NCBI GenBank assembly: GCA_041649115.1
Contig: JBAZNT010000007.1
Location: 16,046 to 80,045 of the forward strand
Direction of reading: 5' to 3'
DNA from: Candidatus Omnitrophota bacterium
GTDB lineage: Bacteria; Omnitrophota; Gorgyraeia; Gygaellales; Profunditerraquicolaceae
DNA: 64,000 nt
Part shown: one piece after another, positions 1,646 to 45,576 of the stretch
Layout of the letters: each line of letters starts with the position of its first letter
Numbering within the stretch: position 1 is the stretch's first letter
Made by a program: the position numbers and the translations under genes
The notes under the pieces: model-generated
Told to the model about the DNA's origin: nothing
The model's database searches: none
The model's input: only the letters and a program-made list of their open reading frames with translations

Positions 1646-3037
1646 CTAGACCCTCCTTTTCTTGAGAATTACCCCTAATTCCTTTAGCTGCTTATCCTTG
1701 ACCTCCGAAGGCGCTCCGGTTAAAGGGCAGAAGGCCTTCTGGGTCTTGGGAAAAGCGATAACCTCACGAATGCTAAGCTCCCCCGCCATTATAGCCAATA
1801 ACCGGTCTATGCCAAAAGCGAAACCGCCGTGCGGCGGAGCCCCGAAACGAAACGCCTCCATCAAAAACCCGAATCGCTCTTTCGCCTCCGCCTCGCCGAT
1901 ACCGATGACCTTAAAAATACGTTCCTGCAACTGCGGGCTGTGAATCCTGATGGAGCCCGAACCCAACTCTACCCCGTTTAATACCAGGTCGTAAGAACGC
2001 GCCCTGGCATCTCCGGGGGAATTTTCCAGAACTCCAATGTCACTGTCCGCCGGAGCCGTAAAAGGATGGTGCTCGCTCTCCCAGCGCTTCTCCTCTTCGT
2101 TATATTTAAAAAGAGGAAAATCCTGGACCCAGACAAAGGCAAAATCGGAATTCTTGCTTTTTCGCAGGTCGGGCTTATCGCTGCCGTATTCTTTTACCGC
2201 CTCCTGGTAGGAAAGCCGTTCAAACGGCAATTTTAAATCTATGCCTTTAAGCTCGCTGAATACCAGCTGCATCAGTTCCTCTATCAGCAAAAAAATGTCA
2301 TTCTCTTGGACAAACGACATCTCGATATCCAACTGAGTGAATTCCGGCTGACGGTCGGAGCGCAGGTCTTCGTCGCGGAAACACTTTGCGATTTGATAAT
2401 AGCGATCGATGCCCCCGACCATCAGGATTTGTTTGAATAACTGCGGCGACTGCGGAAGGGCATAAAACTCTCCCGGACTGAGCCGCGAAGGAACAAGGTA
2501 ATCGCGTGCGCCTTCGGGAGTAGACTTTGTCAGTATGGGGGTATCGCAGGAAACAAACCCCTTGCCGGGCAGAAAGGAATTAATGACATTGTAAAGCCTG
2601 TCCCGCATCAGGAAATTATCCAAAACCCTTTTCCTCCTTAAATCCAGGTAGCGGTATTTCAACCGCACCTCCTCGCTTACCTCCAGATCGTCAAGGACCT
2701 CAAATGGCGGCGTAAGGCTGGGGTTAAGTATCTCCAACTCGGAGACCGCCATCTCTACCTGTCCGGTAGGTATCTTATCGTTGACCGTGCCTTGCGGACG
2801 GCGGCTAACCTTCCCCTTGATACGTATGACAAACTCGTTTCTTAATTCCTGGGCGCGGCTGTGCGCCTCGGGAGAATCCTTGGGTATGAAAACTGCCTGC
2901 GTTATGCCGAATCTGTCGCGGATATCGATAAAGATAAGTTTACCGTGGTCCCTGCGATTGGCAACCCAACCGCAAAGCGTCGCCTCTTTGCCGATATCTT
3001 CGGCACATAATTCTCCGCAGGTGTGCGTGCGAAGCAT
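1646..3037 (-). CDS. aspS: aspartyl-tRNA synthetase, bacterial-type sequence lacking the GAD insertion domain
   Basis: Class II motifs are present (FRDEDLRSDRQPEFTQLD, GSGSIRIH, GFAFGIDRL). The protein is only 463 aa. The sequence runs GSDKPDLRKSKNSDFAFVWVQDFPLF, where bacterial enzymes carry a domain of about 125 aa. Confidence 0.9.
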   Translation of the reverse strand: MLRTHTCGELCAEDIGKEATLCGWVANRRDHGKLIFIDIRDRFGITQAVFIPKDSPEAHSRAQELRNEFVIRIKGKVSRRPQGTVNDKIPTGQVEMAVSELEILNPSLTPPFEVLDDLEVSEEVRLKYRYLDLRRKRVLDNFLMRDRLYNVINSFLPGKGFVSCDTPILTKSTPEGARDYLVPSRLSPGEFYALPQSPQLFKQILMVGGIDRYYQIAKCFRDEDLRSDRQPEFTQLDIEMSFVQENDIFLLIEELMQLVFSELKGIDLKLPFERLSYQEAVKEYGSDKPDLRKSKNSDFAFVWVQDFPLFKYNEEEKRWESEHHPFTAPADSDIGVLENSPGDARARSYDLVLNGVELGSGSIRIHSPQLQERIFKVIGIGEAEAKERFGFLMEAFRFGAPPHGGFAFGIDRLLAIMAGELSIREVIAFPKTQKAFCPLTGAPSEVKDKQLKELGVILKKRRV

Positions 3038-3038
3038 C

Positions 3039-4292
3039 TTATCCCCTATCCTTTCTTAACTCCTCAATTAAATCCTTCAAGGGCACCTCGCGCTGTTGGC
3101 TGGTGCGCATATCCCTGAAGGCGATAACCTGTTTTTTAAGCTCATCCTCCCCCAATATCAAAACCCGGCTTGCTCCGGCATCATTGGCCTTGCGCATTGC
3201 GCCCTTAAGGGACTTATTCTCGTAGTCGGTATCTGAGGGTATACCCGCCCCTCTTAAAGCGCTAAGGAGCCTCAGCCCCTCTTTGCCGGCTGCATCCCCC
3301 AACGTTATCAAATAAATCAGGCTGTCCTGCCCCCTCTCAGGCTGGTCCTGGCAAGAAACCAGAAGAAGCCTCTCCATGCCAAAGGCAAAACCCATTGCGC
3401 CGGTCGCCGGGCCGCCCAACTCCCTGATAAGATCATCATACCTCCCCCCGGCTCCGATAGCGTCCTGGGCGCCTAGCCCCGCATGTTTAATTTCAAAGAC
3501 GGTGCCGGTGTAATAATCGAGACCGCGTACCAGGCAAGGATTAATTCTATACTTTATGCCCAATGAATCCAGGCCGCCCCTTACCTCTTTGGCATGCCTC
3601 AAACAGCCGCTGCACAAAAAGCTATCGCCGGACTCAAGCAAACCTGATACCGTTTCCCGGCACGATGGATTCTTGCAGTCAAGGATACGCAGGGCATTGC
3701 GCCCAAAACGCTCATTACATTCAGGGCAAAGATCGGCTAGGCGCGGTTTAAGGGAATCGCGCAAAAAATGTATGAATCCGTTTTTATCCTCAGCGCAACC
3801 AAGGCTGTTTACTTCAATTACATAGCCGGCTACGCCAAAGGCCTTAAGGAGGGTATCGGCCAGAGATACGACCTCTACGTCTACCATCGGGTTCGATGAG
3901 CCGATTACCTCGCACCCTAAGTGATGAAACTGGCGCAATCTCCCCTTTTGCGGCCTCTCTAGCCTGAACATCGGACCGGTATAATAAAGTTTTACCAGCC
4001 CTTTGTTTTTATCAAGGTTGTTTTCTAAGTAAGCGCGCGCAATCGGAGCCGTCCCTTCCGGACGCAGGGCATAGGTATCCGAGGCGTTTTTAATAACAAA
4101 CATCTGCTTCTGGACTATTTCGGCAGATTCTCCCAGCGAGCGGTTAAATAAGGCAATGTCCTCTATCAGCGGAAAACGCACCTCAGAGTAATTATAAAGC
4201 GCAAAAACCCTGCGCGCAGCCTCTTCTATCTGCTGCCAGCGCCCGATCTCATCGGGCAGGATATCTTTCGTGCCGGGAATTCTATTGAACAT
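3039..4292 (-). CDS. hisS: histidyl-tRNA synthetase
   Basis: 417 aa. Contains LRPEGTA, YYTGPMFRLERPQKGRLRQFHHLG and GGGRYD motifs. Confidence 0.92.
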   Translation of the reverse strand: MFNRIPGTKDILPDEIGRWQQIEEAARRVFALYNYSEVRFPLIEDIALFNRSLGESAEIVQKQMFVIKNASDTYALRPEGTAPIARAYLENNLDKNKGLVKLYYTGPMFRLERPQKGRLRQFHHLGCEVIGSSNPMVDVEVVSLADTLLKAFGVAGYVIEVNSLGCAEDKNGFIHFLRDSLKPRLADLCPECNERFGRNALRILDCKNPSCRETVSGLLESGDSFLCSGCLRHAKEVRGGLDSLGIKYRINPCLVRGLDYYTGTVFEIKHAGLGAQDAIGAGGRYDDLIRELGGPATGAMGFAFGMERLLLVSCQDQPERGQDSLIYLITLGDAAGKEGLRLLSALRGAGIPSDTDYENKSLKGAMRKANDAGASRVLILGEDELKKQVIAFRDMRTSQQREVPLKDLIEELRKDRG

Positions 4293-36701: not shown

Positions 36702-36985
36702 TGGTGGACAGGAGAGGATTCGAACCTCTGAAGCACAAGTGCAGCAGATTTCAAGTGCCCTTAAGTTACCTCAAGGCTTGGACTATCTCATCACCATGGC
36801 TTCTAGCTTTAGGTGGTAGGCGCTTAGTCTCTGCACCTTCCCGTTTATATAGCGGGCTTGGCTCAGGATTGCCCTTGGGCATTTACGCCAAGGGGTTCCC
36901 TGAATTCACCTACTTTTTCATCCTGTCTTTCGACAGGATGCTGCTTTAAACAGTCTGCCCCCTTTGGCCGCTTGGGTACCTGTCC
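36702..36985 (-). tRNA. tRNA-Tyr (GTA) interrupted by a group I intron (exons 36950-36985 and 36702-36751)
   Basis: The joined exons give an 86-nt type-II tRNA: GGACAGGTACCCAAGCGGCCAAAGGGGGCAGACTGT + AAATCTGCTGCACTTGTGCTTCAGAGGTTCGAATCCTCTCCTGTCCACCA. CCA is encoded. Confidence 0.88.
36752..36949 (-). mobile_element. ORF-less group I self-splicing intron (tRNA-type, IC3-like)
   Basis: The last exon nt is U in a U-G wobble of P1 (CUGU/GCAG), and the intron ends in G. Pairings seen: P2 with GAAA loop, P3 GUAGGUG/CGCCUAC, P4 UCAGG/CCUGA, P5 CCCUUGG/CCAAGGG, P6 CCCG/CGGG, P7 GACUA/UAGUC, and P9 with GUAA loop. Confidence 0.85.
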
Positions 36986-37607
36986 ATATTGAGATTTTTG
37001 TTACGTAACCCTGAATCCAATTTTTAATTAATTTCAATAATTCCTTATCGTTGTACCTGACGTGAACCAATCCATACGGTAATATTCTATTATTTTTATT
37101 CGGAGTTCCCTCTCTTATATATGGCTTAGTAAATTGAGCAAGAGGAATGCCGGTAATCTTACGCCAATAGTTTTTTATCTCCTCTAAATCATTATACGAG
37201 TAAGCATAAATATAAAGACGCAGGCGTTCTTCTTTAATGCCGCAGATCCGCCTTAAGAACTCCAAGAATAATTTTACCATGCAAGGATTGCTGTTAACAA
37301 AATCTACGGCATTACCCTTAAGAGTTCCTTCCGCCCAATAAAGCATGATGCCGGCGGTCTTCAACTCTTCTTCGGCAACGGATAAATTCAACTTTGCATT
37401 AAAATGAGGCTTGGATTTATTCGATAAATATCCAGCTTCAGAATGATCGCGACGGTCAATACCATGTTGTTTCATAAAATCGTATAATGACCAAAAAGAG
37501 ATACCGATTTCACGGGCAACTTCTTCTATAGTATGTCTTTTGTCCCTATAGAGAAAGTTAATTCTGTCAAAATTCAACTTTTTTGGCTTTATTTGTATAG
37601 CTGTCAT
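36918..37607 (-). CDS. free-standing LAGLIDADG-like homing endonuclease with N-terminal HTH
   Basis: 229 aa. HTH segment TIEEVAREIGISFWSLYDFMKQHG. LAGLIDADG-like helix AGIMLYWAEGT, followed by a single endonuclease-fold-like region (GLVHVRYNDKELLKLI). The last 22 codons overlap the tRNA-Tyr 5' exon and intron. Confidence 0.55.
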   Translation of the reverse strand: MTAIQIKPKKLNFDRINFLYRDKRHTIEEVAREIGISFWSLYDFMKQHGIDRRDHSEAGYLSNKSKPHFNAKLNLSVAEEELKTAGIMLYWAEGTLKGNAVDFVNSNPCMVKLFLEFLRRICGIKEERLRLYIYAYSYNDLEEIKNYWRKITGIPLAQFTKPYIREGTPNKNNRILPYGLVHVRYNDKELLKLIKNWIQGYVTKISIWTGTQAAKGGRLFKAASCRKTG

Positions 37608-37616
37608 ATTTATCTT

Positions 37617-37648
37617 TTTTAAGGCCGGCGAGAGGAATCGAACCCCCG
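37617..37648 (-). repeat. duplicated 3' end of tRNA-Thr (T-arm + acceptor 3' strand + start of trailer)
   Basis: The 22-mer GGCGAGAGGAATCGAACCCCCG (plus strand) at 37627-37648 is identical to 37790-37811. Flanking TTAAG similarity is also present. It ends about 10-15 nt upstream of the endonuclease ATG. Confidence 0.8.
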
Positions 37649-37785
37649 CCCCATCGCTCGCATAAGCTCGCTCTCTATAGGGGCCCGTGCCCCCTCTGGC
37701 GGTCGCTTGCGCTCCCTGTCACCCCAAAATGCGCGGGGAAACTTTTCCCCGCACCCCTGGGTCGGGTAATACATTACGGAATTTA
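37649..37785 (-). other. hairpin element between tRNA-Thr and its duplicated 3' end
   Basis: It contains GGGGTGCGGGGAAAAGTTTCCCCGCGCATTTTGGGG and a second GC hairpin AGGGGGCACGGGCCCCT. The core is about 85 percent identical to the tRNA-Gly-associated element. Confidence 0.6.
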
Positions 37786-37858
37786 AGCTGGCGAGAGGAA
37801 TCGAACCCCCGACCCGCTGTTTACAAAACAGCTGCTCTACCGACTGAGCTACGCCAGC
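37786..37858 (-). tRNA. tRNA-Thr (TGT)
   Basis: The reverse complement is GCTGGCGTAGCTCAGTCGGTAGAGCAGCTGTTTTGTAAACAGCGGGTCGGGGGTTCGATTCCTCTCGCCAGCT. Canonical cloverleaf. No encoded CCA. Confidence 0.9.
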
Positions 37859-45460: not shown

Positions 45461-45464
45461 TACT

Positions 45465-45562
45465 TCAGGCAACGGGGAGGCAATATACGGCCTGAGAGTT
45501 CTGCTTTAAGAGCAGATGACCCGCAGAACCTGACCTGGATAATGCCAGCGTAGGGAGAGAAA
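45465..45562 (+). ncRNA. TPP (THI-box) riboswitch
   Basis: Contains GGGGAGG...CCTGAGAG...ACCCGCAGAACCTGACCTGGATAATGCCAGCGTAGGGAG, which matches the THI-box core CUGAGA / ACCUGAUCUGGAUAAUGCCAGCG. Confidence 0.9.
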
Positions 45563-45576
45563 CATCATTAACAATA

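Follow-up and report, generated by a model that had tools for sequence, protein, structure and literature searches.

The window analysed here, a stretch of 64,000 nucleotides (nt) from a Candidatus Omnitrophota bacterium (contig JBAZNT010000007.1), carries on its minus strand two short elements, one behind the gene for tRNA-Thr(TGT) and one behind the gene for tRNA-Gly(TCC), which are two degenerate members of one family. A typical member has the same orientation as a tRNA or tmRNA gene and lies 15-45 nt behind it; it consists of a conserved multi-helix core of ~110-170 nt (the whole family being put at 100-170 nt), which is preceded by a segment antisense to the tRNA, termed S', and followed by a direct copy of the 3' part of the same tRNA, termed the orphan. 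On balance the members are probably non-autonomous homing or insertion elements that resemble introns and are built around a structured RNA core. The family is apparently undescribed, as judged from Rfam 15 and a limited search of the open-access literature.

At the threonine site the 22-nt end of tRNA-Thr, GGCGAGAGGAATCGAACCCCCG, occurs exactly twice, at 37627-37648 and 37790-37811, as an earlier note on this DNA had said, and none of 100 shuffled sequences gave any match with up to three mismatches tolerated (chance expectation 0). The likeness continues beyond these 22 nt and forms a direct repeat (D3) of 34 nt with 88% identity (37619-37652 and 37782-37815) and a start-to-start spacing of 163 nt. 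The left copy of this repeat comprises the final ~30 nt of the intact tRNA-Thr, and the downstream copy is indeed an orphan fragment. The trailer of tRNA-Thr contains CCCGACCC (minus sense), which, as read from the sequence, is complementary to GGGTCGGG of the tRNA, so that the back-pairing suggested in the earlier note holds. This segment is the S' of the element and provides the 5' strand of a closing stem, P1; it pairs perfectly with the tRNA copy, and with GGGGCGGG of the orphan at 7 of 8 positions, the remaining one being a G·A mismatch. The likeness of the threonine and glycine cores, previously put at about 85%, amounts to 33 identical positions in 41 alignment columns, which is 80% of the columns and 92% of the shorter sequence, and the second GC hairpin, beginning with AGAGGGGGC, is present in both elements (H3 in Table 1).

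The glycine site repeats this layout in a shorter form. Its direct repeat (D2) spans 45 nt with 96% identity (36430-36474 and 36557-36601), the left copy corresponding to the last 22 nt of tRNA-Gly plus the trailer, which includes AATCGAACC, antisense to the T arm (inverted repeat I14). Spacer and S' together measure 18 nt here and 27 nt at the threonine site. The core is without H2 and terminates with GGAG...CGAC; its type of H3 is also present in another Omnitrophota locus (L042; loci are given by L numbers throughout). In the minimum-free-energy fold of the element P1, H1 and H3 form (z = -5.1), with P1 comprising 9 complementary base pairs (bp) by sequence, 8 of which are paired in the fold. 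Behind the orphan a second spacer-S'-AAAGGGG directly precedes the start of thyA at 36416 and is probably the stump of a further tandem unit; the same right-hand stump pattern was seen in L071, L140 and L148. In the window, L071 and L148 the right-hand AAAGGGG precedes by a few nt the ATG start codon of the following gene (thyA, secE and others), and may have been co-opted as the ribosome-binding site of that gene.

Further copies are plentiful. Beside unrelated matches, a search of a genome collection for the first-hairpin motif picked up genome bins of Omnitrophota and FCPU426 that have an identical layout. A 26-nt second-hairpin motif taken from these loci, CANAGGGGCNNNGCCCCTNTGGGGAG, was used for an independent scan of a metagenome collection, which returned at least 119 stretches of DNA. 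The two scans bring the number of further copies to above 120, from Omnitrophota, Rokuibacteriota and candidate division FCPU426, the GC-rich ones being assigned to Candidatus Rokuibacteriota. A covariance model, R1, was built from 42 copies, with the threonine copy in the seed and the glycine copy outside it. Run on the 64-kilobase (kb) window with filters off, R1 scored the threonine element with 66.8 bits, the glycine element with 41.5 bits and the next match with 11.7 bits, in agreement with the earlier statement that the core is seen nowhere else in the window. The threonine match arises partly by construction because this copy was in the seed, and the glycine score is independent because that copy was absent from it. 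On 100 metagenome loci R1 found 113 copies with typical scores of 95-130 bits, and the two window copies are called degenerate because their scores lie below this range. Their decay can be followed against the consensus: the threonine copy has AGAGAG for GGGGAG, GAT for GAC and the mismatch in P1, and the glycine copy has lost H2. Both are probably relics.

The earlier note had proposed a family of elements rather than a random duplication, and the abundance of copies in both scans, their common layout and their position next to tRNA 3' ends support this proposal. It had also named the opposite possibility, namely that the two features are ordinary rho-independent terminators with a chance likeness, next to a randomly duplicated tRNA end. 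In its favour, a short U-rich stretch (GCAUUUUGG in the threonine copy) comes after the GC-rich hairpin H1, and the explanation can nevertheless be given practically no weight, being already refuted by the R1 scores, the more than 100 relatives with the same architecture and the exact 22-nt repeat: the likeness spans the whole multi-helix core of ~110 nt (E=1.5e-11 for the glycine copy). No terminator-like site was called on the tRNA strand, that is, on the minus strand between 36300 and 38000, where the tails read GCAUUUUGG and GUAUUAGG.

Searches of Rfam 15 did not place the family. Ten loci with canonical copies gave only tRNA matches at E<=0.1; at gathering scores the whole window gave only tRNAs, a group I intron and a thiamine pyrophosphate (TPP) riboswitch; and at E<=10 both window elements gave sub-threshold matches only, no known ribozyme or other family coming near its gathering score. 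Likewise, no description of the element was found in the limited search of the open-access literature or in the main text of Weinberg et al. (2017).

In tRNA sense, the order of a family member is tRNA or tmRNA, spacer x, S', AAAGGGG, H1, YUUYGGGGURACA, H2, H3, GGAG, H4, GAC and orphan. The spacer is AT-rich and unconserved, and x plus S' usually measure 15-45 nt, with a maximum of 156 nt. S' comprises 6-19 nt antisense to the variable loop and T arm of the tRNA and stops 1-4 nt short of the core, and the orphan, which abuts GAC, duplicates the tRNA in direct orientation from about position 44-53 through its 3' end. Covariation and strand-specific G·U pairs suggest that the core may fold as RNA. 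In H1 changes on both sides occur in 10 of 11 pairs, and 97.5% of the cells are paired, compared with 47-66% when the partners are slid; none of 500 shuffles attained the observed values. The alignment used for these counts (A3) was fitted to the model, and the covariation of H1 is also present in the MAFFT alignment A2. H1 also retains basal G·U and U·G pairs, which the opposite strand would read as A·C. H3 follows the consensus CCA-N-AGGGGC, loop, GCCCCU-N-UGG, in which a conserved non-canonical G·A or U·U pair tracks the R of GGGGURACA: the combination (G,G,A) was found in 43 copies, (A,U,U) in 33 and others in 16. GGGGURACA itself, which like GAC was part of neither scan pattern, has only 4 forms among 57 parsed copies, and GAC is kept in 54 of them, while H2 and H4 are each distinct in 51 of the 57 and vary in length from 11 to 40 nt (H2) and from 7 to 32 nt (H4). 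For P1 a simple best-helix test is weak because GGTTC is common to all T arms, and a test anchored at GAC was used instead: cognate pairs of S' and orphan gave a mean of 3.48 bp, compared with 2.19 bp for permuted pairs, and none of 200 permutations was as high. Individual examples of P1 reach 13-19 bp.

Small additional hairpins decorate the family. The duplicated T loop is often broken right after GGTTC by one of them (L139, L148, L172, L180, L203, L204, L223, L227 and L232), exactly after C56 being the commonest insertion point, and tiny GC hairpins such as CCTGCCGGCAGGCAGG or TAGCGAAGCG are located at various positions of the elements in L028, L129 and L207. They may represent a separate class of mini-insertions, or may have been selected for breaking the repeat.

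The linkage to tRNAs was counted for 89 unique copies with full flanks, upstream being defined as a tRNA or tmRNA that ends <260 nt away. A co-oriented tRNA or tmRNA was found upstream in 60 of the 89 and just downstream in 7 more, and no copy had only an opposite-strand tRNA nearby; the host tRNAs cover at least 14 amino-acid specificities. Both window copies have a co-oriented tRNA upstream and an abutting direct copy of its 3' part (D3 and D2). Whether copies always lie at tRNA 3' ends was a test suggested in the earlier note; most do, and about a quarter are located elsewhere, with the proportions rough since copies were sampled via exact motifs, among the matches listed. The duplicated tRNA fragment, which the note also proposed to look for, is present in most of the 60 tRNA-linked copies, in which the last 15-36 nt of the tRNA recur right after the core. 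In most of these the direct repeat ends at the tRNA 3' end (-3 to +4), and it starts at a median of 25 nt ahead of this end; between tRNA types its length ranges from 15 to 36 nt, with one case of 48 nt. On the element side the junction invariably reads ...GCGA(C), and the start on the tRNA side lies 15-48 nt from the 3' end and is fixed within a tRNA type.

That both window blocks are insertions is shown by five relatives (L240, L242, L245, L248 and L249), which share the synteny PdxJ-AcpS-Nnr-[tRNAs]-ThyA-PilZ and have empty threonine and glycine sites, the next gene coming directly after the tRNA; no R1 match was found within about 5 kb in any of the five. In a sixth relative, L250, the tRNA-Gly/thyA site is occupied by a canonical copy. 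In the window the threonine orphan continues directly into the ancestral trailer and the ATG of an open reading frame (ORF) of 229 amino acids (aa), and in L242, L245 and L248 the equivalent trailer directly follows tRNA-Thr. The bases of the two repeat copies were compared with regard to an insertion inside the tRNA or at its 3' end, and the two informative sites point in opposite directions: the orphan retains the ancestral acceptor G70, like the tRNA-Thr of the relatives, while the working tRNA-Thr of the window has a compensated T3-A70 pair, and the orphan has the derived G in GGGTCGG, the tRNA copy showing the reverse pattern at both sites. The tRNA-Pro and tRNA-Met of the window have plain trailers without an element.

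Elsewhere the family forms tandem arrays (L119, L191, L208 and L219), and in Rokuibacteriota it behaves as a dispersed repeat at gene 3' ends. In L194, from this phylum, two copies of ~250 nt lie 2.4 kb apart (about 301-560 and 2761-3020), at unrelated sites, with a core identity of 98% and, by eye in the alignment, ~95% identity over ~250 nt; each begins a few nt past the stop codon of an unrelated gene (secF-like and relA) and has an extra terminator-like hairpin.

The reading as a non-autonomous homing or insertion element is called intron-like because of its site-specific lineages and patchy presence, the conserved core with variable hairpins, the occasional nuclease ORF, and the pairing of the 5' segment with the tRNA. 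In this scheme the element would be transcribed within the tRNA 3' trailer and would fold as RNA into a multi-helix junction, closed by P1 between S' and the first bases of the orphan. Recombination within the 3' segment of the tRNA would place the block behind a tRNA that stays intact, the orphan being what is left of the displaced or duplicated 3' end. The tRNA and the orphan could then act as flanking homology for the transfer to empty alleles, a homing-style persistence for which an enzyme would be supplied in trans.

Several observations weigh against this reading. The copies that are not at tRNA 3' ends, whose share is only roughly known from motif-based sampling, are found in the 5' untranslated region of spoVG, just 5' of tRNAs and after housekeeping genes, and usually have an S/S' hairpin of their own on the left side. 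The family has no linked recombinase, nuclease or reverse transcriptase, and its mobility is thus deduced from comparative evidence. The constant junction within a tRNA type may mean few insertion events and much vertical spread, with the patchiness produced by loss. A structure in single-stranded DNA would yield similar signals of covariation and G·U asymmetry. Invariant junction nucleotides beside freely varying stems would also be expected of an RNA that is useful to the host, and the matching of S' to many different tRNAs has no account in the favoured model.

The last but one of these points leads to a somewhat unlikely alternative, in which the element is a cis-acting RNA of use to the host, such as a ribozyme, a processing or stability module or a regulatory leader, selected in each copy and released from tRNA trailers or the untranslated regions of mRNAs; P1 would then be a processing stalk and the tRNA duplication merely the historical origin of the copies. 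With this would agree the near-invariance of the junction nucleotides next to H2, H4 and spacers that nearly all differ, the non-canonical pair of H3 that tracks the R of GGGGURACA, an orientation that is strictly that of the neighbouring tRNA, the copies directly ahead of the ribosome-binding site of spoVG and other genes or just 5' of tRNAs, and the AAAGGGG shortly before the next ATG in the glycine copy, L071 and L148. However, the element is missing behind the same tRNAs in close syntenic relatives and is hence dispensable, consensus positions have been lost in the window copies, tandem arrays and near-identical dispersed copies amount to repeat-like behaviour, and no one gene class or tRNA species is served.

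The junctions can also be read as traces of an RNA-templated insertion resembling that of short interspersed elements (SINEs), which we consider quite improbable. The element RNA would be copied from a bottom-strand nick at the variable loop/T stem, with the orphan as target duplication; a snap-back of the polymerase at the RNA 5' end onto the primer strand would make S', and imprecise sealing at the 5' side would leave the variable spacer. This would account for the precise 3' junction, where tRNA sequence always abuts GCGA(C), for the left junction with its unconserved spacer of highly variable length, for the dependence of the direct repeat (15-48 nt) on the tRNA type, and for an S' that adjoins the core and whose reverse complement is exactly the initial 6-19 nt of the orphan. 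The 5'-defective copies in L131, L187 and L218, which are without all or part of H1, would fit as well, as would the tRNA-Gly and tRNA-Lys copies of L129, which are mutual closest relatives with a common extra hairpin, yet each have their own cognate S' and S. On the other hand, no reverse transcriptase is located near any of about 120 loci, the identical junctions within a tRNA type and the S' of Met-type copies, imperfect yet conserved, point to inheritance, and the extra hairpin of L129 could be a separate mini-insertion or result from gene conversion. To our knowledge, no such retroelement is known in bacteria, which also counts against this explanation. For the family as a whole, the constancy of the junctions within a tRNA type favours lineages, and the paired L129 copies favour jumps.

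Genes for mobility were sought in the surroundings of the copies. Clustering of 863 ORFs within 3 kb of ~120 copies gave housekeeping families only, with no integrase, transposase or reverse transcriptase; no recombinase was found in the 20-kb neighbourhood in the window, although one encoded elsewhere in the genome could act in trans; and a motif scan of 2.9 million viral contigs gave 0 matches. These results bear on the possibility that the elements are relic attachment sites, left by prophages or integrative elements that once resided in tRNA genes and were later almost wholly deleted. Integrase-mediated insertion into tRNA genes classically leaves a direct repeat that extends from the T arm to the 3' end of the tRNA, with the element located behind the intact gene (Reiter et al., 1989; Williams, 2002). 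Copies of the family show just this arrangement, and tandem accretion occurs, but relic attachment sites remain a very improbable source: no copy has an integrase or phage gene next to it, the viral contigs lack the motif, the family is also found away from tRNAs, and independent deletions would not leave one covarying core of 110 nt at more than 100 sites and at least 14 specificities.

A GIY-YIG ORF is present inside the element in one tRNA-Asn lineage only, that of L139 and L131. In L139 an ORF of 85 aa occupies the spacer between tRNA-Asn(GTT) and the core, and in L131 one of 75 aa replaces H1; a six-frame search of the window gave no GIY-YIG-like ORF. A more specific form of a mobile element, which we think unlikely, would have the core act as a ribozyme or as a protein-recruiting scaffold of a new kind of element, whose S' base-pairs with the T-arm region of the tRNA. 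It would copy itself behind tRNAs by RNA-templated synthesis or by guided recombination, rebuilding both flanks from the target, and in some lineages would act jointly with a minimal GIY-YIG nuclease. This would amount to a tRNA-homing element of bacteria that is akin to an intron, but spares the host tRNA through duplication in place of splicing.

Table 1. Coordinates of the two elements, their host tRNAs and other features of the window; Thr and Gly denote the elements behind tRNA-Thr and tRNA-Gly.
Feature	Position	Strand	Basis
tRNA-Thr(TGT), intact	37786-37858	-	ARAGORN; Rfam tRNA 68.3 bits
Thr spacer x TAAATTCCGTAATGTATTA, AT-rich, unconserved across the family	37767-37785	-	sequence
Thr S' CCCGACCC, antisense to variable loop/T stem GGGTCGGG; 5' strand of closing stem P1	37759-37766	-	sequence
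Thr conserved core	37653-37758	-	R1 match 37646-37764, 66.8 bits, E=8.6e-20; alignments A2, A3; pair counts
Thr first-hairpin core GGGGTGCGGGGAAAAGTTTCCCCGCGCATTTTGGGG	37722-37757	-	alignment to tRNA-Gly core
Thr A-GGGG, then H1	H1 37731-37755	-	core component
Thr GGGGTGACA	37717-37725	-	core component
Thr H2	37700-37716	-	core component
Thr H3	37675-37699	-	core component
Thr AGAGAG, variant of GGGGAG	37671-37676	-	core component
Thr H4 + GAT, variant of GAC	37653-37670	-	core component
Thr orphan: variable loop, T arm, acceptor 3' strand and first trailer bases	37619-37652	-	repeat D3; 22 nt exact
tRNA-Gly(TCC), intact	36580-36650	-	ARAGORN; Rfam 72.6 bits
Gly spacer TATAGT + S' AATCGAACCG (antisense to T arm CGGTTCGATT) + AA	36562-36579	-	inverted repeat I14, 10 nt, 100%
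Gly core, short variant	36476-36561	-	R1 match 36469-36570, 41.5 bits, E=1.5e-11
Gly H1	36531-36555	-	core component
Gly H3, perfect 12-bp stem	36489-36514	-	core component
Gly orphan (36453-36474), then second spacer + S' + AAAGGGG (36430-36452)	36430-36475	-	repeat D2
tRNA-Tyr(GTA), anticodon loop split by group I intron	about 36700-36991	-	RF00028, 93.6 bits; missed by ARAGORN
229-aa ORF, no Pfam family	36918-37607	-	N-terminus matches PHROG 'HNH endonuclease' families; LAGLIDADG-like LYWAEGT motif
TPP riboswitch	45463-45573	+	RF00059, 57.7 bits, above gathering score

The two elements belong to a minus-strand tRNA cluster between the genes for NAD(P)H-hydrate dehydratase and thymidylate synthase, in which tRNA-Thr, the threonine element, the 229-aa ORF, tRNA-Tyr, tRNA-Gly, the glycine element and thyA follow each other; the ThyA of the window is 84-90% identical to Candidatus Omnitrophota proteins, and the contig is listed in ENA as ERZ27247363 k141_466281. 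The group I intron of tRNA-Tyr lies 700 bp from the element under study. The 229-aa ORF is directly upstream of tRNA-Tyr and extends into its exon 1, and hence is located outside the intron. Among the relatives, neither intron nor ORF is present in L240 and L248, the intron only in L249, and both in L242 and L245, as in the window. The arrangement resembles an ORF-less intron that is accompanied by a free-standing homing endonuclease. A different short hairpin repeat (…TTCTCCGACAAGGAGAA…GGCACTCAAGCAGCACC) is located between tRNA genes in L248 (about 3470-3600), L242 and L249 and in the right flanks of L184 and L213, and it seems that tRNA clusters of Omnitrophota gather several kinds of small repeats.

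If the favoured reading is true, the family would be a widespread, cross-phylum class of structured RNA in the nearly uncultivated lineages Omnitrophota and Rokuibacteriota that is missing from Rfam 15; for Omnitrophota, 176 complete genomes are reported in a 2026 preprint (bioRxiv 10.64898/2026.06.07.730766). The architecture of the family is unusual in that the stem which clamps its conserved multi-helix core derives from the sequence of the adjacent tRNA itself, and it would represent a new route by which a selfish element can occupy tRNA genes harmlessly. This raises the question of whether the tRNA-derived flank is a guide, a primer site or a homology arm. In practical terms, annotation pipelines will mistake the orphan 3' ends of tRNAs for pseudo-tRNAs or for the attachment sites of nonexistent prophages, and CANAGGGGCNNNGCCCCTNTGGGGAG can serve as a simple 26-nt marker of the family.

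Comparison with known systems starts with a single Rfam family, the Clostridiales-2 RNA (RF02937), the sole family whose full-length model can be aligned with the cores of both window elements. The matching parts are GGGGGUGC, a GC hairpin, GGGUGNNCAG and a further hairpin, whereas the half with H3 and H4 and the link to tRNAs lie outside that model. Membership was rejected, the scores being 19.3 and 14.8 bits compared with a gathering score of 58.6, and canonical copies giving no match at E<=0.1. A very abundant repeat in Clostridia bins from rabbit gut ('Lapin'; L002 and about 40 other loci) has a left module of GAACC-N-GGGTGCGGGG, loop and CCCCGC, and continues differently after this shared module. 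Clostridiales-2 may be related, which hints at a wider superfamily with a common 5' module.

Guide-RNA scaffolds with a guide that matches a tRNA gene are known from the homing CRISPR RNA of type V-K CRISPR-associated transposons (Saito et al., 2021) and from the transposon-end RNAs of TnpB and IscB (Meers et al., 2023). As a lead only, the family resembles them in placing a structured RNA next to a short stretch that either equals the 3' part of the neighbouring tRNA gene or is complementary to it. It differs in that its two guide-like segments pair with each other, and no Cas12k, TnpB, IscB or transposon ends were found nearby.

Bacterial miniature repeats such as REP/BIME, ERIC, Correia/NEMIS, RUP and BOX are transcribed and fold. 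The family shares with them that it is small, non-coding, multi-copy, intergenic, hairpin-rich and non-autonomous, and presumably also co-transcription with its neighbours. In contrast to these repeats it has neither fixed terminal inverted repeats nor a short fixed target duplication; its flanking repeats are tRNA-derived and site-specific, tRNA 3' ends are strongly preferred, and the core is conserved across phyla. An assignment to miniature inverted-repeat transposable elements was likewise rejected, the inverted flanks (S' and the orphan start) varying with the adjacent tRNA and the direct repeats measuring 15-48 nt rather than having a fixed length.

Integrative elements that use tRNA or tmRNA genes, and their integrase-less, cis-mobilisable derivatives (CIMEs), form a further group of reference (Reiter et al., 1989; Williams, 2002; Pavlovic et al., 2004). 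As in these, copies of the family lie downstream of an intact tRNA, are bounded by a direct repeat from the T arm to the 3' end and leave an orphan 3' fragment; tmRNA is also targeted, and tandem arrays occur. Unlike them, the family measures 100-170 nt instead of kilobases, has no integrase in cis or nearby at ~120 loci, possesses a covarying, RNA-like core and an S' antisense to the start of the repeat, and as one family spans at least 14 amino-acid specificities in addition to non-tRNA sites.

Finally, mobile group I introns with homing endonuclease genes offer a parallel. The elements of the window are not themselves group I introns, RF00028 matching only the tRNA-Tyr intron (36759-37039) and the adjacent tRNAs being intact, and the family differs from such introns in that it leaves the tRNA uninterrupted and that duplication, not splicing, keeps the tRNA intact. 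Like them it forms lineages tied to particular sites, which some close relatives have and others lack; it combines a conserved core with freely variable hairpins at the periphery, where a GIY-YIG ORF is occasionally located, and its 5' segment pairs with the flanking tRNA sequence.

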